Shown one piece after another: positions 2,445 to 56,535 of a DNA stretch of 64,000 nt. The DNA is from a virus (lineage: Duplodnaviria > Caudoviricetes). The translations under genes were made by a program, and so were the position numbers. Each line of letters opens with the position of its first letter. Position 1 is the stretch's first letter. The notes below the pieces were generated by a model. The model was not told the DNA's origin. It worked only from the letters and a program-made list of their open reading frames with translations, and ran no database searches. Location: positions 160,001 to 224,000 of IMG/VR virus record IMGVR_UViG_3300037067_012889; one strand, given 5' to 3'.

Positions 2445-4802
2445 CTAGCCATAAATCAGTTTATTTGCACCGGGCACCACTTCTTCGACTACCATCTTAC
2501 ATAAGCATAAGTGAAATTCACTTATCATTTTGTATTCGATTGAATCGAATCCGCAGCTTTCGCCGATTTCTTGTTTGACGGCGTTTGCTGCCGACGTGAA
2601 CTTCAACATTGCTGCAGTCCGCAGTTTTGATATGTGGGCGTTAGAAACAGAGCAGATATGCTCACCCTTCTCATCCACTTTATCGAAAATGTCGGTCCAC
2701 ACATGTATCGGAGTCTTTCTACCAATTTCGACACCACCAACGGCTGGATAACCTGCTTCGGCCCATTGAGATTTTCCACCGCTCGCGGTGATTTCCGGAT
2801 CTTGTGGTGTATCGCGCTCAGGATAGTTATCAATGCCATATATTCTGAGCAACATCCGATATTGCTGAACTGATACTGTCTCTGGTGATGGCTTGAGTTT
2901 AATATCCTGCTTTGCTACCTTCAACAGATCGTTGATTTCGGTCCGAATCTCACTAAATCCGCCATGTATCTCTATCGTCCCGAAGATCGATTTAAGTAAT
3001 TCAGAAATTTCTTCTTTCCATTCGCCCAAATCTCCTACATCTTGGGCAATGTTTTTAAGATCACTGATTGCCTTTGTGGTGTCGAGATTTTCAGAGCGTG
3101 CCTCTAGATAACTATCGACAGCTTCTCGAATAGCCGTAAAAATCTCAGCGGCTTCTTCTGCTTGTTCTTTTCGTTTAACAGAATCATCCTGATATGGCGA
3201 AACTTTAGCAATCGTCATCGCCAACTTTTCACGAGTCTCCTCACTATGCAAATAGTCTACATTAGTGCCAGTACTAGCGAAATCTGTACGCTCAGTCTGC
3301 TCGTCATCATCGCCGCCGACATCCATAGAAGCAGCATGAATAGCTTGTAAGTTAACCTGTTCTCGCGTTCTGATCATTTCTTGCTGATGTTCGCTCATAC
3401 TGATGAATTCCTCTAGTTGCTCTCTATCATTCGATCTTAATGCTTCTTCTAATCTTGCCGTTATTGCTGCAAGTCCAATAGATCCCGGAGATTTATGTAA
3501 ATCTTTCTGATGTGGTTCATATCTAGAAACATACGCTGTTTTCCGCACAGTACCAGTTTTGCCATACTTGCTCTTACTTATGGGATACTTGAAATCGTGC
3601 CACAATTTTTTCGCAGCATCGACAAGTTGATCAGATGACTGCCCATTAGATAACAACTTATCAGCATGACGGGCCAATTCACGTTGCTTGTCTAGTAATT
3701 TGGCGGCTTTATTATATGCCACTAATGAACCATGCTCCCTCGGTTTTGTACCAACGGCACCGCTACGAGTGCTGCCGAGGGATTTATACTTACTTTCATT
3801 TTGTTCTATCTTGTCAAACACCTCATCCATGCTTTCAAGTTCTCGTTGAATCTCCTTAGCGCTTCCAGATGTTATAGCACGAAGAAGTTTGCTTCTTACC
3901 TCCAACAATTCATCAGCGAGAATACCATATGGATGTTTCGGGCCAGATTCTAATTCACCTCTACCACCGCACCTGACACAGCGCACTAATGCCCTGCGGC
4001 CTTCTTTATCTAGCATATTCTTACTTTGAATCTCTCCGGTGCCCTCGCAATCTGGGCAACGATTGAAGTTCGCAAAAATTTTGCGAACTTCCATAATATC
4101 ACCCTCTATTCGTTCTCCATTCCTGATATTGCGAATAGCCGATTTTGCGATAGATGTCAAATTTCTTCGTATTCCCCTAGCTTTGCGATATTCATCATGA
4201 TATCCGGGCGGAACACCCGAACGCATAGCTTGTTCTATAGCTATACCAATATAAGAGTCAAACCTTACACCTTCTTCGGCTCTATCACCGGGCAATACCT
4301 GTATAGCCGCTTCGGCACCACGCATCATTGCATCTCTTATATCGTTCTCATCATATGTGCCACCATGTGTTGCCGCTGCTGCCCCAGAAACCGAACCCTT
4401 TTTGGCGATTCTTCGTAGGACAGAATTGTCGTATTCGTCATATAGTTTACCTATTAGTGTCTCGATCACTTCACTAACAGACCATGGCCTAATTCCACCA
4501 TATTTATGGCTGTATGGATTTTCATCGAATTTTATATTGTGTGAGTCTCTTTCCGATAGACCGCGCTTACCGGTATCCTTAGGGCCGATAGGTTGTTTAG
4601 AACCTGCTGTGAATACTCTTGGCGGTATATAATCACGGCCAGCGACATAATCATCCCAGCCGACATTTGGACCTTTACAATTATGTAAGGCCATCTTCCT
4701 GGCCGCAGGATCGTTCATATCGACTACTATTTCCGGTGGATTTTCTGCCTCACTAATAATTCCGACATTGAACGCCGAATCTAGTCGCTGTATAATATTC
4801 AT
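2445..4802 (-). CDS. expanded sigma70-family-like factor with a DnaJ-type Zn-finger insertion (785 aa)
   Basis: Region 2-like DIRDAMMRGAEAAIQVLPGDRAEEGVRFDSYIGIAIEQAM, region 3.2-like ASMDVGGDDDEQTERTDF, region 4.1-like VSVQQYRMLLRIYGI and region 4.2-like SVSNAHISKLRTAAMLKF occur in canonical order; also CPDCEGTG..CVRCGGRG. Confidence 0.6.
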   Translation of the reverse strand: MNIIQRLDSAFNVGIISEAENPPEIVVDMNDPAARKMALHNCKGPNVGWDDYVAGRDYIPPRVFTAGSKQPIGPKDTGKRGLSERDSHNIKFDENPYSHKYGGIRPWSVSEVIETLIGKLYDEYDNSVLRRIAKKGSVSGAAAATHGGTYDENDIRDAMMRGAEAAIQVLPGDRAEEGVRFDSYIGIAIEQAMRSGVPPGYHDEYRKARGIRRNLTSIAKSAIRNIRNGERIEGDIMEVRKIFANFNRCPDCEGTGEIQSKNMLDKEGRRALVRCVRCGGRGELESGPKHPYGILADELLEVRSKLLRAITSGSAKEIQRELESMDEVFDKIEQNESKYKSLGSTRSGAVGTKPREHGSLVAYNKAAKLLDKQRELARHADKLLSNGQSSDQLVDAAKKLWHDFKYPISKSKYGKTGTVRKTAYVSRYEPHQKDLHKSPGSIGLAAITARLEEALRSNDREQLEEFISMSEHQQEMIRTREQVNLQAIHAASMDVGGDDDEQTERTDFASTGTNVDYLHSEETREKLAMTIAKVSPYQDDSVKRKEQAEEAAEIFTAIREAVDSYLEARSENLDTTKAISDLKNIAQDVGDLGEWKEEISELLKSIFGTIEIHGGFSEIRTEINDLLKVAKQDIKLKPSPETVSVQQYRMLLRIYGIDNYPERDTPQDPEITASGGKSQWAEAGYPAVGGVEIGRKTPIHVWTDIFDKVDEKGEHICSVSNAHISKLRTAAMLKFTSAANAVKQEIGESCGFDSIEYKMISEFHLCLCKMVVEEVVPGANKLIYG

Positions 4803-37465: not shown

Positions 37466-37810
37466 CTACCAATCACCACCAGCACCACCGCCGCCGAAAT
37501 CTCCACCGCCGCCACCGAAAATACTGCTGCCACCACCGAGTATATCGAGATTCAATGAACTATCGTCCGAAGGCTCATCGACTGTCGATTTCGGCATATA
37601 TGATTCTTGTACTGCAGTGCTGTGATGCCCTGCCAGCATCGTTCTGACTTGTTGCTCAGTGTCGAAGTAAAATCGCCCACGACTCCAACTACCATCTCGT
37701 TGGAGATACAGAGCCTCACTACCAGATTTGTTTAAGCAATACCATTTGTTCCAATATTGCTCATCAACATCGGGTCCGGGCGTAGCTTGCTTGATTTGTA
37801 CTTGATCCAT
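37466..37810 (-). CDS. hypothetical protein with a GGGGDFGGGGAGGDW tail
   Basis: The tail duplicates that of the adjacent TPM protein. Confidence 0.65.
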   Translation of the reverse strand: MDQVQIKQATPGPDVDEQYWNKWYCLNKSGSEALYLQRDGSWSRGRFYFDTEQQVRTMLAGHHSTAVQESYMPKSTVDEPSDDSSLNLDILGGGSSIFGGGGGDFGGGGAGGDW

Positions 37811-37831
37811 CCTGTAGTCCTGTAGTCACCT
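37811..37831 (-). repeat. orphan CRISPR-repeat core (AGGTGACTACAGG + ACTACAGG)
   Basis: Exact 13-nt match to the 3' end of the array repeat plus an 8-nt tandem copy. Confidence 0.65.
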
Positions 37832-37858: not shown

Positions 37859-38647
37859 TTACCAACCTCCACCGGCTCCACCGCCGCCAAAATCGCCACC
37901 ACCGCCTGAATAACTGTCGCTTCCTCCGCCACTACTGCCGCTGCTGCTGCTTCCACTACCAATGAAACTGCTACCGAAAGAATCGGAACTAATCGCAATT
38001 ATGACAATAACAATCACTATAATCACAACGATCACGATTATAGTGATGCCAAACCAAGTAGACCAAAAACTAGCAACTGCGGCACCGGCAACGACAGCTG
38101 TGCCAGCGCCGACAGCCCCTGGTACTACACGACCATGTATATTGGCGTCGATAGCTTCGATCGCTACTTTAATACCGGCATGAAAATCGCCAGCCTTGAA
38201 TTGTGGCTTCACCTGATCGGCAAGGATATGGCGGCACACAACATCGGTAAGCGTCCCTTCTAACCCACGCCCAACAGTTATCCAAGTCTTATGTTCTTTA
38301 ATAGCGGCGACAAACAACACCCCATTGTCTTTGTCTTTCTGTCCCAACTTCCATCTTTTGGCCGTCTCGATTGCGAATTGACTAATATCCTGTCCACCTA
38401 AAGTTGGTATAGTCAGGACAACAATTTGGTTGCCAGTTTCTTTCTCCTGCCTAAGAAGTTCATTGCTTAGGCTCTCAACTTGGCTCACCGACAACACTTT
38501 GGCATCGTCATTTATTGGACCACGTAATGTCGGCGTTGCAGCCGCACGTGCAGATTGCATCACCGGCATTAACAACATCGCAAGCATGCCGACAATTGCG
38601 ATTACGACGAGCAATTCAACTAATGTAAAACCGTTCGTGCGTTTCAT
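37859..38647 (-). CDS. TPM-domain membrane protein with a prepilin-type N-terminal methylation leader
   Basis: MKRTNGFTLVELLVVIAIVGML..QSARAAA; TPM motifs WKLGQKDKDNGVL and VGRGLEG; TM helix; Gly-rich tail. Confidence 0.88.
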   Translation of the reverse strand: MKRTNGFTLVELLVVIAIVGMLAMLLMPVMQSARAAATPTLRGPINDDAKVLSVSQVESLSNELLRQEKETGNQIVVLTIPTLGGQDISQFAIETAKRWKLGQKDKDNGVLFVAAIKEHKTWITVGRGLEGTLTDVVCRHILADQVKPQFKAGDFHAGIKVAIEAIDANIHGRVVPGAVGAGTAVVAGAAVASFWSTWFGITIIVIVVIIVIVIVIIAISSDSFGSSFIGSGSSSSGSSGGGSDSYSGGGGDFGGGGAGGGW

Positions 38648-38657
38648 TTAGTATCTC

Positions 38658-39263
38658 TCAGAATTCGACTTTTGGTGCAGTCTTCGCAGCTTCTGTTACT
38701 TCAAAAAGTTCTGCTCGTTTGAATCCGTGCACGTTAGCGACCATTTGACTGAACAGACCACCAACAGTAATGTTATATTCCTTCACAGCTTTATTATATC
38801 GGTGGCGAGCTTCATTAATACGATTTTCTGTACCTTCCAGCTGCGATTGAAGATCTAAGAAGTTCGTATTAGCTTTCAATTCAGGATATTGCTCCTGAAC
38901 TAGAAGTAGCCGTGACAGGGCCGATGACATACCGCCCTGCGCCTCTGCAAACTTTTTCATCTGTTCTGGGTCGGTCGTTGCGGCGTTAATATTTACCTGC
39001 CCGACCTTCGCACGTGCTTCGGTAACATCATTGAATACGTCATGCTCGTGTGTAGCATATCCCTTAACAGTGCTGACGAGGTTCGGTATCAGATCATACC
39101 TACGTTGAAGAGTAGATCCAATATCGGCCACCTTTTCCTGAACAGTATTGAATCCGGTATTGAGGCTACTATAAGTGCCCCACCACGACAACCCAATAAT
39201 AATGATGATGAGTAGTACGACGCCAACAAGACCCAATGCAACGTATAAACAACCCTTCATCAT
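38658..39263 (-). CDS. lemA: LemA family protein
   Basis: LQRRYDLIPNLVSTVKGYATHE; EQYPELKANTNFLDLQSQLEGTENRI. Confidence 0.95.
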   Translation of the reverse strand: MMKGCLYVALGLVGVVLLIIIIIGLSWWGTYSSLNTGFNTVQEKVADIGSTLQRRYDLIPNLVSTVKGYATHEHDVFNDVTEARAKVGQVNINAATTDPEQMKKFAEAQGGMSSALSRLLLVQEQYPELKANTNFLDLQSQLEGTENRINEARHRYNKAVKEYNITVGGLFSQMVANVHGFKRAELFEVTEAAKTAPKVEF

Positions 39264-39312: not shown

Positions 39313-39538
39313 CATGCAATATCTAGGAGCGAGCGATACTCTCTATTCCTGTTTTTGTTTACAGAAATATTCCTGTAGTCACCTGGGAACGAGCGGTACT
39401 CTCCATTGCAGAAAGGCGGATGGTCAAGATCGGGCTTCCTGTAGTCACCTGGGAACGAGCGGTACTCTCCATTGGAATGAGCTGTGCGAGCAATGGGCCA
39501 ACTCCTGTAGTCACCTGGGAACGAGCGGTACTCTCCAT
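39313..39538 (-). CRISPR. CRISPR array 1: 3 perfect 35-nt repeats, 1 degenerate terminal repeat, 3 spacers
   Basis: CCTGTAGTCACCTGGGAACGAGCGGTACTCTCCAT at 39372, 39438 and 39504 (period 66); degenerate copy 39313-39346; leader TACGCCAACGGGT on the right. Confidence 0.95.
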
Positions 39539-39583
39539 TACGCCAACGGGTTGACGGTCATAATAATACCACTAGTAAATCTG

Positions 39584-40619: not shown

Positions 40620-40859
40620 CCTGCAGCCACCTAGAAACGATCACACTCTCTAAATACTGAGTTATCCAGAGAGCAGCAACCTGTAGTCACCTGGGAACGA
40701 GCGGTACTCTCCATCAACTTCGCACGCGGCTAGCACGCGTCCAGCCTGTAGTCACCTGGGAACGAGCGGTACTCTCCATCTGTCCCAACGCATCAGACAC
40801 CAACGCATCAGACAGACAACGCCGCCTGTAGTCACCTGGGAACGAGCGGTACTCTCCAT
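40620..40859 (-). CRISPR. CRISPR array 2: 3 perfect repeats, 1 degenerate repeat, 3 spacers
   Basis: Repeats at 40680, 40745 and 40825; degenerate copy 40620-40653; same leader as array 1. Confidence 0.95.
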
Positions 40860-40893
40860 TACGCCAACGGGTATTAAAGCATGCCACTAGTAA

Positions 40894-40972
40894 AAAGGTG
40901 ACTCTGGCGAGGGCTAACACGGTACGTATTGCCCGCAGCTATTCTCGCCTTCGAGACGTACAGGACGCCTCT
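40894..40972 (-). ncRNA. tracrRNA-like element, copy 1
   Basis: 79-nt element identical in 4 copies; bipartite complementarity to the repeat 3' end. Confidence 0.85.
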
Positions 40973-40985
40973 AAATTGATTCAGT

Positions 40986-41276
40986 CTATTTCGACTGGTC
41001 CTCTTCAATCAGGTTCTCACGGATTTTCACGGCTTCGGCAGTGATATTCCGCAGCAGCATGTCCGCAATCGGGTCCGTAGTCCTGGTACACGCCAGGTGG
41101 CTTGTAATTTCATCCATGAAAATTACCATCGTCATTGCTTCCGGGGTGACGAGACAGTTCCCACCAATTTCCAATTCAAAATTATCGAGATGTGCATGAC
41201 TTGCGGCGTCCAGGTGAACACCACCACGGCAACCATCTGATGCTTTGCCACGCTTATGCAGATAATAGTTACGCAT
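40986..41276 (-). CDS. hypothetical protein (96 aa) directly downstream of the second dCas12f
   Basis: GGAG RBS before ATG 41276. Confidence 0.6.
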   Translation of the reverse strand: MRNYYLHKRGKASDGCRGGVHLDAASHAHLDNFELEIGGNCLVTPEAMTMVIFMDEITSHLACTRTTDPIADMLLRNITAEAVKIRENLIEEDQSK

Positions 41277-41307
41277 TAGTAAATCTCCGGGCGTCAATAT
41301 AGTACAA

Positions 41308-42513
41308 TTATCCCGCTTTTTTCTTGAACTTACGTGCGCCAATCACGTGGATTATGACGTCGATATCGGCTTTATTGCAAGCCTTCTGAATCAACGAACC
41401 CATCTGCTGCCAATCCCAATGAGTCGATTCAATATTGCATCCCTGGACACGACCGACCTTCTCCATATGTCGATTGTTACATAGATCGCCAACTGGTTGA
41501 AATACCACAAGCCGACCCGCACCAGCCATACTCAAACGCCTGACCATCTCTTCGGCGAGCCTGTGATTCCATGTTTTGACGAAATCACGCCATCGACGCG
41601 TCAACTTCTCACGACGAGTAATTGCGATGTTCCGCTTTTTCTTAGATCCTTTATAAAGACGTTGGATTGTCAAGGATCGGCGGGTGTGCTTGATGTCGTT
41701 ACCAAATCGCAATCTGGTGCTTGTCCTACCATTGATGCGGAACAGGATTGGGCGTGAAAATCCACCAGACAAGAAAGCCGTCTTGTTCTTGTCGATGGGC
41801 AATTTCACCTTTGGAATGGAATGACAGATCTTGGCATACCATTTACCATCGCGTTCGAATAAATCGACACCCTTGATACTCCATTCGCCGTCCGCAATCC
41901 TCCAAAACATGTTGCGAATAGAATGGAGCTTGTATGACTTAGTCTTGATCTTGAAGATCATGACGGTGTCATCGTCGAATCGCACTTGCAACTTCCAATC
42001 ATCATCGTCAGTTGCCGGAACGACGATATGACAATCGCTAGTGCAGAACGGGATTTTGCCGCGCTTAGCAGATTGCGGCAATTCGCCAAGACCAGCCAGA
42101 GCGATCATCCAGCGAGGATAGGCTGACTTGATGCCGGACTTCTTAATGAGATCCTTCATCGCTTTTTTGACAGCCAGCTGAATCTGCTTCATACCAAACT
42201 CAGCATGTGTCTCGGCGATAATGGCCCGCAGCCGTTCATCCATCTCAGGGCTGCAAGGATCAACAGAACATCGAATGCGGGGACTAACACGCTTATCAGG
42301 ATGATACAACCATTTCTTGTCGTTCTCCATCCATTCTCGAACGATAAGATGATTACCAGCTTCGTAGTGTAGCCGCAACCAAGCCGCTGCAAAATCATTA
42401 GTAACCTGCTGGATTTTGTCGGCGATGGTAGAGAGACGCTTTTTCTCTACTGCGAAATCTCCATCACTTCCAACTAGATCAACCCTCTTGTTCTTGATAA
42501 CTCTGTACTGCAC
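41308..42513 (-). CDS. Cas12f1-like protein B, RuvC-inactivated and C-terminally truncated (401 aa)
   Basis: GKWYAKIC; RuvC-I site TAFLSGG (no Asp); RuvC-II site LVVFQP (no Glu); WDWQQMGSLIQKACNKADIDV; no Zn finger or RuvC-III; GAGGAG RBS. Confidence 0.85.
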   Translation of the reverse strand: MQYRVIKNKRVDLVGSDGDFAVEKKRLSTIADKIQQVTNDFAAAWLRLHYEAGNHLIVREWMENDKKWLYHPDKRVSPRIRCSVDPCSPEMDERLRAIIAETHAEFGMKQIQLAVKKAMKDLIKKSGIKSAYPRWMIALAGLGELPQSAKRGKIPFCTSDCHIVVPATDDDDWKLQVRFDDDTVMIFKIKTKSYKLHSIRNMFWRIADGEWSIKGVDLFERDGKWYAKICHSIPKVKLPIDKNKTAFLSGGFSRPILFRINGRTSTRLRFGNDIKHTRRSLTIQRLYKGSKKKRNIAITRREKLTRRWRDFVKTWNHRLAEEMVRRLSMAGAGRLVVFQPVGDLCNNRHMEKVGRVQGCNIESTHWDWQQMGSLIQKACNKADIDVIIHVIGARKFKKKAG

Positions 42514-42530
42514 GATTTCTCCTCAAAGGA

Positions 42531-42609
42531 AAAGGTGACTCTGGCGAGGGCTAACACGGTACGTATTGCCCGCAGCTATTCTCGCCTTCGAGACGTACAG
42601 GACGCCTCT
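42531..42609 (-). ncRNA. tracrRNA-like element, copy 2 (between the two effector genes)
   Basis: Identical 79-nt element. Confidence 0.85.
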
Positions 42610-42620
42610 GGATTGATTCA

Positions 42621-43925
42621 TCATGCTGCTTTCTTCTTACGCAATTTGCTCTTGCGTGATTCACCAATCTTCCTAACAGTGACCTTGATGCCGACGACCT
42701 TGCAAGCGTGCTGCAATAACAACTGCATTTGGTACCAATCCCAACCGGTCGATTCGGTGAACCCCTTCATCTTCCCGATATTAGTCAGGTATCTTGATTC
42801 TCGCCATTTGCCAGCTGGCTGATATACTACAACGTGGCCGATTTTGGATTTGACACATCGCTTAACGACGTCTGCGGCCCAACAGCTATTGGTCGTCTTG
42901 ACCATATCACGCCACGTGTCCCTGATCTTGTCGCGCCACTGGATTGGCTTCCTGCCATGTCCTTTCCTGGCACTGGAAGCATATTTGTATGATTCGTTTT
43001 TACCGAATCGTTGTTGCGTCAGCGATTTGCGCACACGTTCGATATGCCTACTGTCCATCAAACCCGTCAAAGTCCTACCATTGATTCGCATCATCATCGA
43101 ATTATGGTAGCCAGCGGTAACGAAAGCCGTCTTCGTGGCGTCCAATTGTGACTTCTCGATATTCGTAATCTTGTAACAGATATGCGCGTACCAACGGCCA
43201 TCACGAAGAACTAACGAAGAAGTGTTGAAGATGAATTCACCAGATGCAATCTTCAATAGAGCTTCACGAATGGTGGCCAAATTACGGCCACCGGTTCGCA
43301 TTTTAAAGACCATTGGACGCAGACGAGTACCGAGTCCTCTTTCAAAGCGTACTTCCAGTTTCCACGGGTCTTTAATCGTTTTCGGAACGATGATGCTGCT
43401 GTTCGAAGTGTAAAACGGAATGGGTGCAGGTTTATGTGCTTGTGGGAATTCGCCCAAGCCGGAAAGAATCGTCATCCATCTCTTATAGGCCGACTTCGAC
43501 GACGGCATTGAAGAGATCGTCTTACCAACGTTTTGCAAAATGATGCCGATTGGTTTCGTTCCAAGATTAGCATGCTCTCTTGTGAGAAGTCTGTAGAGCT
43601 GCCTACTCATCGCTGGATCGCATGAATTAACAGGGCACTTAATGCGTGGCGGTGCATCCTTTTTACCCTTATAGGCTTTCGCCCACTCTTTATCCTTCTC
43701 GATCCAATTGCGAATCACCAGATGATGCCCGGCTTGCTGATGCAAACATAGCCAGTGGTTGCAGTAGTCGTTCGCCATCTGCTGCATTTGGACGGCCAGC
43801 GACAAGAGGCGTTTTTTCTCGTCTACGAAATCACCATCACTGCCAGTCAGTTCGATCCTGATGATTTTCGTGATACCATCAGGCTTCTTCTTACGTGGCT
43901 TCTTCTCTACTTTTTCTTCGCTCAT
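42621..43925 (-). CDS. Cas12f1-like protein A, RuvC-inactivated and C-terminally truncated (434 aa)
   Basis: GRWYAHICY; TAFVTAG; Cas12f1-type RKGHGRK; IGHVVVYQP; WDWYQMQLLLQHACKVVGIKV; ends without Zn finger or RuvC-III. Confidence 0.88.
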   Translation of the reverse strand: MSEEKVEKKPRKKKPDGITKIIRIELTGSDGDFVDEKKRLLSLAVQMQQMANDYCNHWLCLHQQAGHHLVIRNWIEKDKEWAKAYKGKKDAPPRIKCPVNSCDPAMSRQLYRLLTREHANLGTKPIGIILQNVGKTISSMPSSKSAYKRWMTILSGLGEFPQAHKPAPIPFYTSNSSIIVPKTIKDPWKLEVRFERGLGTRLRPMVFKMRTGGRNLATIREALLKIASGEFIFNTSSLVLRDGRWYAHICYKITNIEKSQLDATKTAFVTAGYHNSMMMRINGRTLTGLMDSRHIERVRKSLTQQRFGKNESYKYASSARKGHGRKPIQWRDKIRDTWRDMVKTTNSCWAADVVKRCVKSKIGHVVVYQPAGKWRESRYLTNIGKMKGFTESTGWDWYQMQLLLQHACKVVGIKVTVRKIGESRKSKLRKKKAA

Positions 43926-43998
43926 TTGATCCTCTTAATGATTAGAGGGCCTACATGGATTCACGCCTGTAATCATTGGAAGTTAACAATTCCAAAAT

Positions 43999-44077
43999 AA
44001 AGGTGACTCTGGCGAGGGCTAACACGGTACGTATTGCCCGCAGCTATTCTCGCCTTCGAGACGTACAGGACGCCTCT
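43999..44077 (-). ncRNA. tracrRNA-like element, copy 3
   Basis: Identical 79-nt element; has its own promoter upstream. Confidence 0.85.
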
Positions 44078-44104
44078 GGATTGAGTCTAATTGTTCCATA
44101 AAAG

Positions 44105-44133
44105 GTTGTAGCATGAAGAATAGAAATCATTAA
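44105..44133 (-). promoter_or_regulatory. promoter TTAATG-N17(..TCATGC)-TACAAC for tracr copy 3 and the dCas12f genes
   Basis: Member of the recurring motif family; 17-nt spacing. Confidence 0.55.
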
Positions 44134-44562
44134 CCTAGGAACGGCACCCTCCATTCTCTTGGTTCGATGTGTGGCTCGATTGGTTCCTATAGTCACCTTG
44201 GAACAAACGGTACTCTCCATTACACCTGGGAACGAGCGGTACTCTCCATTCACACACCACTTTACCGTTGAGTGGTGTCCTGCAGTCACCTGGGAACGAG
44301 TGGTACTCTCCATTATGGGAAATCCCACTTTACGGTTTACCTGTAGTCACCTGGGAACGAGCGGTACTCTCATTGGTTTTGCGGCAAACCTCTCTTCCCT
44401 TCTCCTGTAGTCACCTGGGAACGAGTGGTACTCTCCATCGATGGATGAAGAATTCCAGCAACCTGTAGTCACCTGGGAACGAACGGTAAACCCCATTCCA
44501 AAAGCCTGTATCGAGCAAACGGTCGCTCCTGTAGTCACCTGGGAACGAACGGTAAACCCCAT
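44132..44562 (-). CRISPR. CRISPR array 3: 8 polymorphic or partial repeats, 6 spacers of 23-31 nt
   Basis: Repeats at about 44132 (degenerate), 44186, 44223 (partial), 44279, 44340, 44404, 44462 and 44528; same leader. Confidence 0.95.
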
Positions 44563-44595
44563 TACGCCAACGGGTATTAAAGGATATCACTAATA

Positions 44596-44674
44596 AAAGG
44601 TGACTCTGGCGAGGGCTAACACGGTACGTATTGCCCGCAGCTATTCTCGCCTTCGAGACGTACAGGACGCCTCT
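44596..44674 (-). ncRNA. tracrRNA-like element, copy 4
   Basis: Identical 79-nt element upstream of the array 3 leader. Confidence 0.85.
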
Positions 44675-47516: not shown

Positions 47517-50500
47517 TTAAGCAGTCTTTTGTGTCGCTTGTACTAGAGATAATTTACAGCATCCGGCGAGCATTGGTGTTTGTGATGTTGGGCGTTTGGT
47601 AATCTGACCCTCTTGGAAGAAGTCGATCCGCAATCCTTCCGATTCAGCGAATCCTTTCAACGATTGCAGCCATTTCTTATATACACCCTTTTCAATCGGC
47701 TGCCAAGAAGTATGTGTGTAGCCCTCCATAAAATTCCACGAGAATAATACGTATCCTGATTTCTTGGCAGCAGCGATGGCAAGATAACAAAGTTCCTGCC
47801 AATATTCTGTTCTCGATTCAACCATACCCATGGTTGCATCATAGCTAATGACACGTGGATTCTTCCATCGATTCCACAGCTTGTGAATGGTCAAGAATTC
47901 ACGATCAGAATGGGCACAAGCTCCTTTTGGTGCTTTATCGATTGCATCTTTATCAACATTGTGGTAAGTGTTTGGACCGAGTTCAACACCGGCGTCGACA
48001 AGATGCTTATGCTCATACCATTCTTTACCGCCAAGAGTCCAAAATTCACAATCAGAAAAAGAGGTAAGGCCGTAATATCTCAGAGCCTTGACTAGGAACT
48101 CACGATACTCATTACGGCCAGCATATTTACCGCGTTTAGCTTTCTTATATGATCCATGGATAAACCAATCAGGCCGTAGTGAACGAATCTGCTTATCAAA
48201 TTCAGGATCGTAACACCTACTATTCTTATTAGTGTAATCACTAAGCCTGCTTGCGTAACGCGCTTCGTCAGCGTCATCGCAATGCTGCTTAGGTTTGCAT
48301 TCATCTTTACCCGCCAACCGCAGCAATATGCTCTTCATAACCATTGCTGTGTCCTCGAACCAATCGGGACGTAGTGAGCGAATCTGCTTATCAAATTCAG
48401 GATCGTAACAACAACTATTCTTATTAGTATATCTAAATATTGCCCTGCCAAATTTATTACTTGGTTTTGGCTCCCATCTATTAGCTAGTCTCAACAATTC
48501 AGCCTTCCTAATCCTTGCTGTGTTCTCAAACCAGTCAGGACGTAGAGAACGAATCTGCTTATCAAATTCAGGATCATAAGATCCGCTGTTCTTGTTGATA
48601 TAGGCACTCAATTTGCCAGCAAGCAATCTTTCCTCACGATTTATTGAACTGCCCTTTGGTCTCCGTTCTTCTTTTCTCCTTGCCAATCCTAACAGTTTGA
48701 TTTTAGTGGCTGCTGCTGTATCCTCAAACCAATCTGGACGCAAGGCACGAATTTGCCTGTCGAATTTATAATCATAACTCGTAGACTTATTAGTATAGCT
48801 ATACAAAACCCGGCCTAATTGTATTTCGTCGGCATCATCGCTTGTGGTTCGTGGCCTGGTAGCCCCTTTTTCAGCCAGCATAACAAGATGTTTTTTCTTT
48901 TCAACAGAAGTTCTTTCAAACCAATCTGGCCGCAACTGTCGAATCTTACCATCGAAGACCGAATCATAATTACAAACATTTGCTTTACAGGTGTAACCTT
49001 GTAACGCAGAAGAAAGCTTAGAATCGGTAGTACGTGTTGGTCTTGGTGCCCCGCTAGCAGCAAGAGATAATAACACTTCCTTCTTTTCGGCTACCACATT
49101 AAACCAGTCTGGCCGCAGTTGGTGGATTTCAATATCAAAAGCATGATCATAAGTTCCGCGATTTTTATTCAAGTAGCAGTTTAATGCTGCTGATAACTGT
49201 CTCTCTCGTAAATTTTTAGAGTTACCACGCGGCCTTCTTTGGCCATGTTTTGCAAGCGCCAACAATTCTGATTTCTTTTGGGCTGTTTTTTCAAACCAAT
49301 CTGGTCGCAGAGTTCTGATAGATCGATCAAAAGCAGAATCATAGCATGAACTCCTCTTGCTTGTATAGCTTGATAATGATCGACCCAAGCGCCTATTATT
49401 TTCATCTTTAGTGTGCATCGTCGGTCGTTTTGAGTTTGGTACTCTCGCTAACGCTATTAAATCGTCTTTGTTCTTTTGAACCGAGTCTTCAAACCAATCT
49501 GATCTAAGTCTTCGTATTTCAGTATCGAAAATCACATCATAATTCTTTTTCTTATTAGTGTATTCGCCGAGCCTACCAGCAAGTCGTTTCTCTTCATGGT
49601 CTACAGCATCTCTATTTGGTCTTTTTCCTCCGCTCTTCGCTAGTTCTATCAACTTCCTTTTGTTCTCTCTCGCCGAATTCGCATTAAAGCGAATCAAGAT
49701 CCTTTCAATCTCGTCAAAATCATCTAGCCCGTTGATGATTCCAAAGTAATCGGTGATGCCGATTACTTTCAGTTTACTGATAGCTTCTTTGACCTCTGGA
49801 TCATTCATGAACTCTTTGAACGATAGCTTGCTAAGCCGTTGGTCGCGTTTGCGGATGATTTCTTCTAACGCTACACGATCGTTTTTGTCGATGACGTCAT
49901 ATTGCATCAACAAGCTTATAGCTAAAATTGGAGTTATGGCAACGCCGTGCTTGGCACATTGCTTACAGAGCATTTCAATCAACTCATTAGCAGACGCACC
50001 GGCGGCGGACTCTTGCAGAATTCGCTGTAAAATTTCGTTGTTCTGCAGCGAATTAATTTGCAACCTGAATTCGTCTCTTTCCTTATTTATTGCAACTCGA
50101 CGACGCTGCGGCAAAGTCAACATAAATGTATCGGTGAAGTCAAGGCCGCTACAGATCGCCTTAATCCTGATTGCGATTTGCAGGTTGGCATTCTTGACCA
50201 CATCCTGGTCTTCATCATCGAGGCTTACCTCAAAGATAACGACTCTTGAAAGATTTGGCGACAGATGCTTCGGGTTCTTCTTGTGGCGTAACGCACGCCC
50301 AACACACCGTTGGATAAATCGTTGCAGAGAACTGGTGAGACGCGGATTAAATGTTTGAGCACATTCAACCCAGTCCATACCTTCGTCAAATAACTTGATA
50401 GCTATGACAACATCATAATCTCTCGGAGAATCTATAATAGCATCAAGCTTAGCTTTGCGCAGATGCTTGTGGTTTGAAATAAGTGTCTTACCGTCATCAG

Positions 50501-51461
50501 ACCCAAAGTTGAGAATCCGAACACCTTTACATTTACTGAGCAGGAGCTTCTGCAAGTCGAGTGCTTGCTTGGCACCATCAACGTACATGATAGTCGGCAA
50601 AGGATGTTTTTTGTATTCATCGATATATGCCTTCAATAATTCGGGATAATCCATGGCCCCCATGAGGCTCGGTTTATTTGATATATCTTCAGTCTCAGCG
50701 AGACGGTCGAAGTCAGATTGATTAACAGCACGATAGAATCGAAGGAATACTCCGAAGTCGGGGCAACATCCATCATGATAATGCTCCTTCAAAAGCCGTC
50801 GAAATCGGCTAAACTCCTCAGATGTTGGCTGGCCACCATCGCTACGAAAGTCTGTGGCTGTGAATGCGTGAACTTCGGAGCATCTATCAATACATTTCCT
50901 CAGGATTGAACCTAATAGATTCTCGTCCTTCATATCGCTGTGATGAACTTCGTCGACGAGCAAAACCACATCTGACATATCGATGGTTTCATCATCCAAA
51001 GCCAAATCAAATGCCTTATAACTAGAAACGCGAACCGTGCCACCTGGACCATTCAGAAATCGTTTCATCGACGCAGATTTCTGTATCTGGCTCTCTTTAA
51101 CACTTTCATACGACAAGGTATATGTATTTATTATCTTATTCTTGTCTTTTTCAACAGCACACCAATCGCCATCCTTGGTATATTTAGTGAAATTGTGATT
51201 GATTCCCAGTTGCGGTGTGATGACGATAACTTTCTTATGCCGTCTGACAAAAGCAGCATAAGCAAGCATCACGTTGGTTTTGCCGCTGCCGGTTGGAGAT
51301 TCAACCAGCGTAAGACGATTCTGCTTCATATGGCCGATCATGCCACATTGATATCGCCGCAGAATTATAGGTGATTGTCCCATCTTCTCAGCGAGAACGA
51401 TGGATTTGGGTGCTACTTTACCAGCAAGGACGCCGTTTCGAATAGTAATAGTTGAATTCAT
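47517..51461 (-). CDS. SF2 helicase with 8 LRPDWF (helicase-associated-like) repeats and an unassigned C-terminal domain (1314 aa)
   Basis: SPTGSGKT, LVDEVHH, TAT, LFDEGMD and QRCVGRALR motifs; 8 repeats of about 60-65 aa. Confidence 0.88.
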   Translation of the reverse strand: MNSTITIRNGVLAGKVAPKSIVLAEKMGQSPIILRRYQCGMIGHMKQNRLTLVESPTGSGKTNVMLAYAAFVRRHKKVIVITPQLGINHNFTKYTKDGDWCAVEKDKNKIINTYTLSYESVKESQIQKSASMKRFLNGPGGTVRVSSYKAFDLALDDETIDMSDVVLLVDEVHHSDMKDENLLGSILRKCIDRCSEVHAFTATDFRSDGGQPTSEEFSRFRRLLKEHYHDGCCPDFGVFLRFYRAVNQSDFDRLAETEDISNKPSLMGAMDYPELLKAYIDEYKKHPLPTIMYVDGAKQALDLQKLLLSKCKGVRILNFGSDDGKTLISNHKHLRKAKLDAIIDSPRDYDVVIAIKLFDEGMDWVECAQTFNPRLTSSLQRFIQRCVGRALRHKKNPKHLSPNLSRVVIFEVSLDDEDQDVVKNANLQIAIRIKAICSGLDFTDTFMLTLPQRRRVAINKERDEFRLQINSLQNNEILQRILQESAAGASANELIEMLCKQCAKHGVAITPILAISLLMQYDVIDKNDRVALEEIIRKRDQRLSKLSFKEFMNDPEVKEAISKLKVIGITDYFGIINGLDDFDEIERILIRFNANSARENKRKLIELAKSGGKRPNRDAVDHEEKRLAGRLGEYTNKKKNYDVIFDTEIRRLRSDWFEDSVQKNKDDLIALARVPNSKRPTMHTKDENNRRLGRSLSSYTSKRSSCYDSAFDRSIRTLRPDWFEKTAQKKSELLALAKHGQRRPRGNSKNLRERQLSAALNCYLNKNRGTYDHAFDIEIHQLRPDWFNVVAEKKEVLLSLAASGAPRPTRTTDSKLSSALQGYTCKANVCNYDSVFDGKIRQLRPDWFERTSVEKKKHLVMLAEKGATRPRTTSDDADEIQLGRVLYSYTNKSTSYDYKFDRQIRALRPDWFEDTAAATKIKLLGLARRKEERRPKGSSINREERLLAGKLSAYINKNSGSYDPEFDKQIRSLRPDWFENTARIRKAELLRLANRWEPKPSNKFGRAIFRYTNKNSCCYDPEFDKQIRSLRPDWFEDTAMVMKSILLRLAGKDECKPKQHCDDADEARYASRLSDYTNKNSRCYDPEFDKQIRSLRPDWFIHGSYKKAKRGKYAGRNEYREFLVKALRYYGLTSFSDCEFWTLGGKEWYEHKHLVDAGVELGPNTYHNVDKDAIDKAPKGACAHSDREFLTIHKLWNRWKNPRVISYDATMGMVESRTEYWQELCYLAIAAAKKSGYVLFSWNFMEGYTHTSWQPIEKGVYKKWLQSLKGFAESEGLRIDFFQEGQITKRPTSQTPMLAGCCKLSLVQATQKTA

Positions 51462-51466
51462 AGTTT

Positions 51467-51495
51467 GTTATAGCACGAAAACAGGGAATTATTAA
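51467..51495 (-). promoter_or_regulatory. promoter TTAATA-N17(..TCGTGC)-TATAAC, leaderless (ATG 5 nt downstream)
   Basis: Member of the recurring motif family. Confidence 0.7.
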
Positions 51496-51510
51496 CTCAG
51501 ATATTCTAGT

Positions 51511-53001
51511 TCAGTCATTCTTAAACCAATCTGGACGCAGAGCACGAATCTTCGCATCAAAATCTGCGTCGTACGTTTTGCAGCTTTTGTTTGTGTATCT
51601 GCGCAACGTATAATATAAAGCATGCATTGCGGTCGGTTTCGCTTCTCCGTTTTTAGCTATCTCTAGAAGACTTTGTTTCTTTATAATTGTATTATCAAAC
51701 CAATCAGGCCGCAGCTTAGATATCTCCGCATGAAATTCCGGGTCATAACAATTACGGCCTGATTTCTTGCAAGTGTATCTAGTAAGTGCTGCACCCAATT
51801 TATCAGTCGGTCTTATGGCTCCGCTTTTGGCTAATTTTGTCAGCTTTCGTTTGGTTTGGCGTATCGTCCCACATGCTACCCTAAACCAATCGGGGCGAAG
51901 GTTATATATTTCTGCAACAAACTCAGAGTCACTGTGGGTTTTTAAATCTTCAGCTAAACGCCCAGCCAAACTCCGCATATGTGGGTCTTTTGACCTGACA
52001 TGTGGCCTGTCTTTCCCATTTTTAGCCATTTCTAGCAATTCTGATCTTCTAACTTCAGGCAGCAGGCTTTTTGGAAACCAATCTGGACGTAGCTCTTTTA
52101 TTGCTGCAGAAAATTCTGGGTCAAAATAATAGCCTTTGTGGATGAAGTTGTTTAACCATCTTGAAAGTGAAAATTCGCCTTCAAATCTTTCACTCCTGTT
52201 CTTACATAGCTCACGCGGCCTATCGGCACCATCAGTAGCAAGCTTTAGTAATTGCTGCTTGTAAATGTTGATACGATCAAACCACCCTGGACGCATTTCG
52301 CGAATCTTAGCGTTGAATTCTGGATCGAAAACGCCGCTATTTTCATTAGTATATCTCTGCAATGCCGCCCCCAATGCAATCTTGCAGTTCGGCTTCTCTT
52401 CTTGCTCTAGTTGTGCTAATTCAAACAACAATCGCTTATTTCTGTCTGATCGATGCTCCAGCCAATCGGGATGTAAAGCACGCATTTGGGCATCAAACTC
52501 AGCATCATAATCATTACTATTTTTATTAGTATAGTTATATAGAGCGGATGCCAATCTCAATTCATCGGACGCATTTTTGCTGGATGAAGGACGTCTCGAC
52601 ATCGATAACAACGTGCTTTTGATTTCCTCTCCCGAAGTTTTAGGTTTGGTAGGAAACCAGTCTGGTCTCAAAGCACGAATTTCATCATCGAATTCAAGTT
52701 GGCAATATCTGCTGCTGCGGTTTGAAGTATATCTTCCCAACGCCTGGCCAAGTCTTGTCTTCTTTGTTGGTTTAGGTGCTCCACTTTTAGCTATTTGTAT
52801 CAACAATCTAGTATTTTCCGCGACAGAATCATAGAACCAGTCGGGTTGCAATCTACGAATCTCTGCGTCAAATTCAGCATCATAAGACAAACCAGGAGTA
52901 GTATATCTTCGCAATGCCGCCGCAAGCTCATACTCCTCAGATCCTCTTCTTGAGAGAGTAAGACGAGGCTTTCTGACCGGCAGATATTCAGATTCAGCCA
53001 T
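51511..53001 (-). CDS. all-repeat protein with 8 LRPDWF repeats (496 aa)
   Basis: Eight YD.EFD..IR.LRPDWF-type units. Confidence 0.85.
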   Translation of the reverse strand: MAESEYLPVRKPRLTLSRRGSEEYELAAALRRYTTPGLSYDAEFDAEIRRLQPDWFYDSVAENTRLLIQIAKSGAPKPTKKTRLGQALGRYTSNRSSRYCQLEFDDEIRALRPDWFPTKPKTSGEEIKSTLLSMSRRPSSSKNASDELRLASALYNYTNKNSNDYDAEFDAQMRALHPDWLEHRSDRNKRLLFELAQLEQEEKPNCKIALGAALQRYTNENSGVFDPEFNAKIREMRPGWFDRINIYKQQLLKLATDGADRPRELCKNRSERFEGEFSLSRWLNNFIHKGYYFDPEFSAAIKELRPDWFPKSLLPEVRRSELLEMAKNGKDRPHVRSKDPHMRSLAGRLAEDLKTHSDSEFVAEIYNLRPDWFRVACGTIRQTKRKLTKLAKSGAIRPTDKLGAALTRYTCKKSGRNCYDPEFHAEISKLRPDWFDNTIIKKQSLLEIAKNGEAKPTAMHALYYTLRRYTNKSCKTYDADFDAKIRALRPDWFKND

Positions 53002-53654
53002 TAGTTAAACCAATCTGGGCGTAGTGCACGAATCTTCGCATCGAAATCTGCGTCATATGTCTTGCGTGATTTGTTCGTATAATTGATCAAAGCACGACCA
53101 AGACGCTGCTCTTCCATCGCAGCACCATAAATCTCCTCAGCATTAATTGCTTCTTCGAGACCATTTGTCCGTATTGGATTCTTTTGATACTTAAGCCACG
53201 CATTGCTATTTGGACGTGGCGCACCGCTTTCAGCCAACTTTAACAACTCTTCTTTGGTCATTGCGGTGCTTGGTAAAACTGCGGGCAATAACGCACCATC
53301 GGCATCAAACCAATCTGGACGAAGAGTACGAAGTTCTTTGTGAAAATCGGCATCGTAACTATTGGTACAACAATAGCGTTTCAATGCCAGCCCTATGCCT
53401 TCTTTCTTACTTGGCCTCTCAGCACCGCTTTCAGCCAGCTCTAGTAGCCGCCGCTTCTTTTGATCCGGTGTCTCTGGTCTTTCTGCCCCACTTTCGGCCA
53501 ATTCTAACAACCGCCGTTTGTTCTCGATATCGGGTTTGCTGGTTTCGATTGGCTCGACCGTGACCTTTAAGCCACTCTTTTCAAGCTTCCTGAGCAAATC
53601 CTTCTGATAGCTAAATAATTCGAACTTTTTCTCGGCCACGTTGATATCTCCCAT
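53001..53654 (-). CDS. protein with 2 LRPDWF repeats and a duplicated KRRLLELAESGAERP
   Basis: Same repeat family; stop/start overlap with the next gene; may start at GTG 53639. Confidence 0.8.
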   Translation of the reverse strand: MGDINVAEKKFELFSYQKDLLRKLEKSGLKVTVEPIETSKPDIENKRRLLELAESGAERPETPDQKKRRLLELAESGAERPSKKEGIGLALKRYCCTNSYDADFHKELRTLRPDWFDADGALLPAVLPSTAMTKEELLKLAESGAPRPNSNAWLKYQKNPIRTNGLEEAINAEEIYGAAMEEQRLGRALINYTNKSRKTYDADFDAKIRALRPDWFN

Positions 53655-53695
53655 ATAATAAATGCACCTGGAACGTTCCAGGTGCATTTATTATA
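53654..53695. repeat. perfect 42-bp palindrome
   Basis: TATAATAAATGCACCTGGAAC|GTTCCAGGTGCATTTATTATA. Confidence 0.92.
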
Positions 53696-55143: not shown

Positions 55144-56535
55144 TTACTGGTTGCTCGATTCCATCGTCGCAACAAACTTCAAGAAGTGTTCAGACCAACC
55201 AGAGATTTCAGCAGTCCAAATACCCTTGTAATTGACACCGTGCGACTCCGAAGAGACATCGATGACATAGTTTCTCTTACCATGCGGCTTCGGTTGTCCT
55301 GAATTAGGATGATCGCAATCTTGCGAATCACTGAAAATCATCAATCGGTCCGGAGCTTCTTCCTCACCTCTGATGAAATTACAGACCTGTCTAGTAAAGA
55401 TGCCGCCACTACCAAGTTCGCTACTTGCATATAGGATCTTATCAGCTAACGCAAAACCACGAAGAGCTTCGATTTTCTTTGTTGCGTGTATGCGTCTGGT
55501 ATCGTCACCAGATGTAGCATAAATGGAAACATGATCGCAACACTCCGCCGCCAAAACTGCCATCGAAGCAGCCGCATCCATCCGAGTGAATTCAGATTTG
55601 CCTGATAACTTACTGGCCATAGAACCAGAAACGTCGATAACCAGAGTTGAAAAGCCATTCAATCGTGGCCACGTCTTCGCACACCGATACATCAGATCTT
55701 CGATTTCTCTGGTCCAATTAGACGCATACTTGCGAGCCTTTAGAAAATCGATCGGTAGCAGCATATCCACTTTACAGTTTGCGAAAGCTTGGGCCATCGC
55801 ATCGCGAGACACTCCCGCTTCCTGCATATTTCGTAGATTCTTTAGGAATGCATAGGCCGGAAGCTTTTTGCTCTCGATCAACCGTTCCCAAACCGCTCGC
55901 TTTTCATCGACGTCCTTTGCCGCCGACATACCGACTTCCCACGTGTCGGGAGTCTTAAGCTCATTGGCGATAAGCCGCTTATACAAATCGTGTCGATCAC
56001 CAGTCGGCTTCGCGTGACACAGGAATAAGACATCTCGCAACTTCACTTCCTTGTCCAGCTGGTTATACTTGGCCAGCTGATATTCGTCGAACTTATCAAA
56101 AGCCTTTGCCAAGCCTCTTTTCACAGCGGCCGGAAGTGATTTTTTGTCGTTGTTGTCGGCCCAGTACATAGCGACAAATTCTGCCATCTCGTCAGGACGA
56201 TTACATATCTTCGCTAATGTCTCGGCCACATCTGGCATGTGATTACGAACCATTTCGCGGACAATCATGAACGGCACATGCCGCAACTTTTGTTCGTATC
56301 GTGCTTCCACAGCCAGACTACCAGCATTTTGTACCTGTGGCACCAGTGCTTTGATTTGGTTTACGACCTCTTGACCGTCACAATAGGCATTCTTCTCCCA
56401 TAATAGACACGTCATCACAAGACGGCGTAAAGTCGCTTCTACATCCTGCTTTGCCGCATGCGGACCATAACCGCCAGCCAGTCTATTGTCATCGTAGACA
56501 TGCGACTTCTTCGTTTTCTTATTGGTGGTCGCCAT
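55144..56535 (-). CDS. rsr: Ro60/TROVE-domain RNA-binding protein with a vWA domain
   Basis: RPDE, FDEYQLAKY, KLRDVLFLCHAKP, TPDTWE, LKNLRN and MIDAS IDVSGSM; adjacent Y RNAs. Confidence 0.92.
   Translation of the reverse strand: MATTNKKTKKSHVYDDNRLAGGYGPHAAKQDVEATLRRLVMTCLLWEKNAYCDGQEVVNQIKALVPQVQNAGSLAVEARYEQKLRHVPFMIVREMVRNHMPDVAETLAKICNRPDEMAEFVAMYWADNNDKKSLPAAVKRGLAKAFDKFDEYQLAKYNQLDKEVKLRDVLFLCHAKPTGDRHDLYKRLIANELKTPDTWEVGMSAAKDVDEKRAVWERLIESKKLPAYAFLKNLRNMQEAGVSRDAMAQAFANCKVDMLLPIDFLKARKYASNWTREIEDLMYRCAKTWPRLNGFSTLVIDVSGSMASKLSGKSEFTRMDAAASMAVLAAECCDHVSIYATSGDDTRRIHATKKIEALRGFALADKILYASSELGSGGIFTRQVCNFIRGEEEAPDRLMIFSDSQDCDHPNSGQPKPHGKRNYVIDVSSESHGVNYKGIWTAEISGWSEHFLKFVATMESSNQ

Follow-up and report, generated by a model that had tools for sequence, protein, structure and literature searches.

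The window examined here, a stretch of 64,000 nucleotides (nt) corresponding to positions 160,001 to 224,000 of IMG/VR record IMGVR_UViG_3300037067_012889, is part of a phage genome; the full record comprises 363,885 nt. It contains two genes for Cas12f-like proteins, the CRISPR (short palindromic repeats that are clustered and regularly interspaced) arrays A, B, and C, and four copies of a 79-nt element, which we interpret as a trans-activating CRISPR RNA (tracrRNA). All of these features are located on the minus strand. They follow each other in the order copy 4, leader, array C, copy 3, gene A, copy 2, gene B, a small open reading frame (ORF), copy 1, leader, array B, small ORFs, leader, and array A. 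Copy 4 (44596..44674) lies 14 nt past the stop codon of a 340-aa ORF and precedes the leader of array C (44186..44562), which consists of 7 repeats of 35 nt, one of them truncated, and decays towards its low-coordinate (trailer) end. Copy 3 (43999..44077) is upstream of dCas12f-A (42621..43925). Copy 2 (42531..42609) is placed between both cas genes, with the start codon of dCas12f-B (41308..42513) 17 nt further on. Copy 1 (40894..40972) lies 13 nt past the stop codon of a 118-aa ORF and precedes the leader of array B (40680..40859; 3 repeats). Array A (39372..39538) is composed of 3 repeats and a decayed one near 39323-39346.

The four copies are identical at 79/79 nt, and 79 nt is the exact extent common to them. 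The flanks of each copy differ from those of the others, and unitigs of sequencing run X1, which may be the source sample, link neighbouring copies through unique intervening DNA. Because of these unlike flanks and copy-to-copy unitigs, the copies are considered real and not a product of collapsed assembly. No fifth copy was found in a search of the whole 363,885-nt contig. The four identical 79-nt elements listed in an earlier, sequence-only reading of this DNA are thus borne out. The length given there is that of the shared core and should not be taken for a transcript length. Promoter-like sites suggest 5' extensions of the core by some 8-20 nt. A scan revealed no intrinsic terminator at the 3' end, and a U-run occurs 9 nt past stem 2. 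Rfam covariance models gave no relevant match to the element up to an E value of 5.

Two segments of the element are complementary to the repeat. Namely, the repeat, 35 nt in length, ends in the 5-nt reverse complement of the minus-strand loop CCUGU, and the 8 nt preceding these are the reverse complement of the minus-strand tail AGUCACCU. On the minus strand of the genome, this loop followed by the tail motif within 75 nt occurs only in the four copies. Pairing between the two molecules was examined in 15 related loci having both the RNA and an array. Five loop versions (CCUGU, CCUGC, CCUGA, UUGGA, and UUGAA) were present in these loci, each fitting the end of its own repeat. The duplex between tail and own repeat comprises 7-11 bp in the relatives and 8 bp in the window. 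Mean helix scores for cognate versus non-cognate combinations were 4.9 and 3.5 for the loop, and 9.3 and 5.6 for the tail; the loop score of 4 obtained for locus L023 is owed solely to a one-base offset of the loop window. Exact permutation over 8 lineages yielded 12/40320 for the loop (p = 3e-4) and 1/40320 for the tail (p = 2.5e-5); since these lineages are related and were chosen by the authors, which takes some weight from the argument, the values serve as guides and not as strict probabilities. A held-out locus, L051, which had no part in building the covariance model of the RNA, was matched with an E value of 8e-17, had the repeat end predicted from its RNA, and formed a 9-bp tail duplex. 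The RNA is also present in L050, where no array lies within reach.

The fold found in the relatives consists of stem 1 (6 bp with a 6-7-nt loop), a linker of 2-3 nt, stem 2, and the tail. Stem 2 is interrupted by an internal loop and a bulge, and its apical pair closes 5 nt. The tail directly follows stem 2 in 32 of 32 distinct aligned rows, and the peripheral stems 3 and 4 are not there. The sequence-only reading had described a seven-pair stem 1 with a 5-nt loop. Six of these pairs are kept; the closing U-A pair varies in the relatives (A.A, C.A, or U.G), and the conserved stem is therefore one of 6 bp with a loop of 6-7 nt. An alignment made by MAFFT without fitting to the structure had 92% of cells paired and two-sided changes at 11 pairs. 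A model-fitted alignment, which leans towards the structure, gave 97% paired cells and two-sided changes in 12 of 20 pairs; 0 of 500 shuffles scored as high, and slid controls reached 32-45%. Sequence and covariation demonstrate both the fold and the two duplexes with the repeat. A pairing of the 5' extension with the tail of copy 4 was considered and dropped as not conserved.

Several features favour the minus strand as the one that would be transcribed. Recurrent G-U pairs, both within the RNA and between RNA and repeat, would be A-C on the opposite strand. Every full-length match in the related loci is on the strand of the cas gene, and where the flank is long enough, the homologues almost always adjoin this gene. 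The arrays decay at the trailer end assigned by this orientation. Since changes in loop and tail go along with changes in the cognate repeat end, the element is interpreted as a tracrRNA with a split anti-repeat and a loop pseudoknot, as had been proposed; homology to the tracrRNA of an intact Cas12f locus, described below, points in the same direction. On grounds of sequence and covariation, we regard it as very probable that this tracrRNA belongs to a Cas12f system which is encoded by the phage and nuclease-dead.

The two effectors are paralogues. dCas12f-A (434 aa) has the Cas12f fold, with the RuvC-I Asp replaced by Thr and a Gln in the RuvC-II region; the zinc finger and RuvC-III are missing. 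dCas12f-B (401 aa) shares 40% identity with A and is likewise dead; in the two window proteins, the RuvC-I Asp site is Thr or Ser. The predicted model of A (pLDDT, predicted local distance difference test, 85) has Cas12f structures as its best matches: AsCas12f in Foldseek with an E value of 1e-19, and, in the VIA comparison, dCas12f 9n9c and AsCas12f with tied Z scores of 24.5 and 24.3. The family profile matches AsCas12f1 with an E value of 2e-29 versus 2e-10 for 9n9c. The DNA-recognition lobes are complete in the model of A. The family, with mostly viral effectors of 400-470 aa, comprises 1156 clusters at an E value of 1e-3 and 235 at E < 1e-30; its nearest Atlas cluster is mostly viral. 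The catalytic residues are lost throughout 169 family proteins. The Asp site is mostly Arg, Ser, Val, or His, the RuvC-II region has Gln in 137 of the 169, and a CxxC near the C terminus occurs in 3. dCas12f-B and its orthologues in L001, L004, and L038 lack the 10-residue tip of the RuvC helix hairpin, which is retained in A, in most of the family, and in AsCas12f1. The lost tip would fit a role of B as the second subunit of an A/B heterodimer.

The covariance model of the phage RNA also matches the tracrRNA of an intact Cas12f, with E values of 6e-5 and 5e-4, in locus L055 on Brevibacillus halotolerans plasmid CP139434.1 (tracrRNA copies at 1066-1225 and 2888-3050). In this RNA, stem 1, the linker, stem 2, and the apical motif agree with those of the window element; two further stems and a long anti-repeat come next and bring its end to near nt 155, as compared to the 79-nt core in the window. 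The L055 Cas12f1, annotated as a transposase, retains the catalytic triad and the zinc finger; its two tracrRNA copies are diverged, arrays are located on both sides, and one copy precedes each array. Only weak model matches were obtained at L053 and L056 and near the active relatives L048 and L049. The tracrRNA of SpCas12f1 has 156 nt (PMC12255294), sgRNA_V1 (single-guide RNA) of AsCas12f1 has 191 nt (10.1101/2023.07.03.547593), and MG119 guides have 129-156 nt (PMC13186708). The conserved core of Cas12f1 guides is made of stem 1, the pseudoknot, and stem 2, the same parts that are left here. Within stem 2, the family alignment has invariant internal-loop purines and a variable unpaired base, which would fit the base triples and the flipped base of AsCas12f1 (10.1101/2023.07.03.547593). 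By sequence comparison, the phage tracrRNA is minimised, without stems 3-4 and most of the long duplex, and the natural minimisation suggested earlier is upheld by these lengths.

In the proposed mechanism, the tracrRNA would be read from the minus strand, co-directionally with the cas genes and arrays. The stem-1 loop pairs with the last 5 nt of the repeat, forming a short repeat:anti-repeat pseudoknot, the 3' tail pairs with the preceding 8 nt, and stem 2 with its conserved internal loop would bind the protein. Loading with CRISPR RNA (crRNA) on the effector is predicted. As in Cas12f1 structures, one tracrRNA:crRNA pair would be held in a protein dimer, with the RuvC helix hairpin of one subunit entering the stem-2 groove. 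The spacer would then direct DNA binding dependent on a protospacer-adjacent motif. It seems reasonably likely that such a dimer-held guide binds DNA without cutting and, most probably, blocks transcription of host or rival-phage genes. Repression without cleavage is suggested by analogy with Cas12m, TldR, and related dead effectors, and the biological role is the weakest step of the reading.

Several observations weigh against this reading. No spacer targets were found in the phage's own genome or the fetched loci, in related phage records, INPHARED phages, or plasmids, in IMG/VR (searched with three 20-mers), or in 401 genomes of the class of G006, the host not being identified. Spacer matches in genomes of the latter class were rejected as matches to the repeat or the spacer-repeat junction, near chance after correction. 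In isolation, the 79-mer prefers to fold with its tail buried (-29.6 kcal/mol, z -2.6), at the expense of the covariation-supported fold (-21.9 to -24.6 kcal/mol); cofolding, which had been proposed as a check, regained the latter once the repeat was added. The 8-bp tail:repeat duplex (-13.0 kcal/mol) is probably too short for RNase III, so that crRNA maturation is unexplained. Finally, array A and a mini-array at 137.4 kb of the genome have no tracrRNA copy.

The position of copy 2 between the cas genes is kept in four of four two-gene phages. Since A and B are sister clades (support 99/96) and a copy is located between them in all four, the tracrRNA-gene unit appears to have been duplicated once. 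Copies within a genome differ by 0 (window) or 1 (L004) positions, whereas 2-9 differences separate copies of different genomes, most of them in the unpaired apical loop; this points to recent copying or gene conversion. It is likely that copies 2 and 3 stem from one tracrRNA-gene duplication, that copies 1 and 4 are tracrRNA-leader-array units, and that their identity results from recent copying or gene conversion. A point against is that L001 has two tracrRNA variants 6 changes apart; homogenisation is not universal. The sequence-only reading had regarded the element as amplified for dosage and natural Cas12f/Cas12k tracrRNAs as normally single-copy. The second statement is not supported in that form by the intact Brevibacillus plasmid locus, which has two copies, so that multiple copies are not unique to the phage system. 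As to the first, selection of four copies for higher dosage, to match many crRNAs and two effectors, is rather unlikely, although copy number tracks gene and array number (4 in the window, 3 in G001, 2 in G002 and L038, 1 in most single-gene loci) and no copy among the four is decayed. Module duplication and homogenisation yield the same pattern and fit the positions of the copies. Besides, a single copy serves L002 (13 repeats) and L009 (17 repeats), and a separate promoter-like site is seen for copy 3 alone, the other copies sitting just past stop codons. Dosage may be a consequence of copy number. In L019 (2109-2157) and L020 (3823-3871), a partial second copy, reduced to stem 2 and the tail, is arranged in tandem with the full copy, which flanks it on one side as the gene does on the other. 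A join in X3 that omits both cas genes was not taken as a deletion; a path through an identical repeat or a leader variant is possible.

A 13-nt leader motif (44563..44575, minus strand) abuts the first repeat of array C. The genome has it at only two other places, ahead of array B (40860-40872) and ahead of array A (39539-39551). In L001, L004, and L038, the last 5 nt of the motif are conserved. The motif is possibly an integration or processing signal, though no Cas1 is encoded in the phage genome, which leaves the gain of its approximately 14 spacers unexplained. Array A has a promoter-like site at 39587-39560 (minus strand). Upstream of copy 3 there is a weak one of the extended -10 type (44105..44133, minus strand), which was not among the sites from the promoter scan; its counterpart in L001 fits the consensus better. 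The orphan mini-array, which lies outside the window (genome C1:137404-137482) at a distance of about 60 kb from the cas genes, has one near-full and one half repeat; the leader motif is partly present there. A distant array is also present in G002 near 123.7 kb. One 45-nt spacer of array B (40780-40824) has an internal 15-nt duplication, and strain contigs carry differing spacers and shuffled array modules.

The ease of fusion into a single guide, which had been anticipated, is supported by natural tracrRNA-half-repeat-guide fusions in related phages, whose function is predicted. In L001 and L013, one tracrRNA copy continues via a 4-bp hairpin into a half repeat, giving an 86-nt scaffold plus spacer; the letters of this junction are also present in a contig of run X1. 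In L040, the tail is followed in cis by a U-rich loop and a 13-nt half repeat. A candidate single-guide form is located behind copy 3 (43946..43975, minus strand), where a decayed 3' half of the repeat (43975-43966, 10 nt, 9/10) precedes a candidate guide. No target was found for the cis guides of L001, L013, L040, or copy 3. A solitary 13-nt half repeat with an 8-nt duplication (37811..37831, minus strand) abuts the start codon of ORF 37466-37810; the half repeat (37819-37831) is exactly the tracrRNA-binding part, and the duplication recurs in arrays of L001 and L004. An omega-like RNA has been proposed to arise when a half repeat and a tracrRNA fuse (PMC10691335), and the fusions match this route. 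In another reading, put forward only tentatively, the phage family is a dual-RNA system collapsing to single guides. As only the last 13 nt of the repeat would be read, tracrRNA copies could fuse in cis to half repeats. The L001/L013 and L040 fusions would be working single-guide RNAs with an 86-nt scaffold, and the sequence behind copy 3 a decayed form. Solitary half repeats in mRNA leaders would act by turning phage transcripts into guides or regulated substrates. If true, the phage would have a transcription regulator that is programmable and does not cut, perhaps in the form of an A/B heterodimer.

Further alternatives deny the complex its DNA target or the element its role as a guide. A decoy or anti-CRISPR, which soaks up host crRNAs or Cas factors without DNA-target binding, has a parallel in a RuvC-dead Cas9 of a phage, which comes with a tracrRNA of its own and for which sequestration of host crRNA has been proposed (PMC11656645), and agrees with the lack of spacer targets. 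It is highly unlikely, given that the anti-repeats match the phage's own repeats, that these carry many distinct full-length spacers, and that the DNA-recognition lobes are complete in the model. The copies could also be mainly cis-acting leaders, at which effector or crRNA binding near the ribosome-binding site controls translation or read-through. The element is directly upstream of the cas start codon in most family loci, often with its U-rich end only 8-16 nt away from it, and copy 2 ends 17 nt ahead of gene B. A pairing role is required by the covariation with the repeat, and the element is away from the start codon in L050 and L051; as a sole function, cis control is most improbable, and as a side function of the copies it is a modest possibility. 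A DNA-level role as mobile cassette ends or recombination sites, to which exact identity across copies and rearranged joins between tracrRNA and array modules in strain contigs might point, is barely credible in view of compensatory changes that tolerate G-U, both within three helices and between element and repeat (an RNA signature), the lack of a transposase or Cas1 nearby, and the core shared with the tracrRNA of intact Cas12f.

Other genes of the window may be mentioned briefly. Just downstream of array A (37859-39263), there are a LemA gene and a TPM-domain gene with a pilin leader of the type found in the PVC (Planctomycetes-Verrucomicrobia-Chlamydiae) group. This pilin-like leader, together with a match in a Lentisphaerales bin, is a hint at a PVC host. 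Three minus-strand ORFs at 47517-53687 (1314, 496, and 228 aa) contain repeats of about 60 aa ending in an RPDWF-like motif, and the 1314-aa ORF has an N-terminal helicase-like domain. A 463-aa ORF at 55144-56535 is, by eye, a candidate TROVE/Ro60-type RNA-binding protein with a vWA domain.

The tracrRNA reading provides a natural, covariation-supported minimal Cas12f scaffold of about half the size of those in cutting relatives. It offers guide designs for a very compact platform for CRISPR interference or base editing, and the omega-like RNA route (PMC10691335) becomes testable on existing intermediates.

Among known systems, the closest likeness is to type V-F tracrRNAs. Those of AsCas12f1, SpCas12f1, OsCas12f, Al3Cas12f, and L055 share with the window RNA the stem-1 loop pseudoknot to the repeat end, the stem-2 internal loop, and the second duplex (PMC11246509, PMC12255294, 10.1101/2023.07.03.547593). 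The V-F pseudoknot is likewise a short duplex (5-7 bp) between the stem-1 loop and the 3' end of the repeat (PMC11246509). The effector fold is shared as well, the window RNA adjoining a Cas12f-fold effector and an array. The differences are in size (about 79 nt versus 155-156 nt in known tracrRNAs and 129-191 nt in fused guides), in the missing stems 3-4, in a duplex of only 7-11 bp, and in a dead effector without zinc finger. Stems 3 and 4 do vary among orthologues, and Al3Cas12f has no stem 4. The RuvC D-E-D triad and zinc finger of V-F nucleases are absent from the window effectors. With an RNA lacking the peripheral stems and a dead effector, the system is not a canonical V-F nuclease, and it belongs neither to V-K nor to the dCas12f-sigmaE systems.

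Cas12k, which the sequence-only reading had also used for comparison, is not a suitable one: its repeat contact is a triple helix (PMC11246509), in contrast to the 5-bp loop duplex here. For V-K systems (CRISPR-associated transposons), tnsB, tnsC, and tniQ would be expected, and the scanned neighbouring ORFs give no transposon family. The dCas12f-sigmaE systems share the dead, C-terminally truncated Cas12f and a minimised RNA. They differ in using a single guide, with no tracrRNA found, and in recruiting sigmaE in Bacteroidota, whereas separate tracrRNAs and arrays are present here; the CRISPR-linked dCas12f cluster of the same study was compared by description only (PMC13472631). No sigma factor is among the scanned neighbours, and of the related loci only L043 has a sigma-70 r4 gene close by. 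The unclassified dead type V clades V-U43 and V-U44 (PMC10691335) and the landfill viral clade C (PMC12607003), which comprises 19 proteins without RuvC motifs, are CRISPR-adjacent and of similar size; they were compared by description only. One of the weak holders of this stretch is a run from a landfill; no RNA run is listed as a holder, which speaks neither for nor against expression. The passages on V-U43/V-U44 and clade C contain no description of a tracrRNA, and the landfill paper does not mention one. The literature search revealed no described RNA for this effector family.

Cas12m (V-M) and TldR share the dead RuvC, carriage on mobile elements, and repression by DNA binding, which is the likely mode here as well. 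Cas12m is larger and needs no tracrRNA, and TldR is guided by a single omega-like RNA, without an array. For Cas12f1, a split anti-repeat as such is textbook knowledge. Hino et al. in 2023 reportedly engineered an AsCas12f sgRNA, deltaS3-5_v7, from which stems 3-5 were removed and in which the same core was kept. Judged by its name and by its mention in PMC11641405, PMC11423357, and PDB titles, this guide is the designed counterpart of a truncation that is natural here and conserved over a large family.

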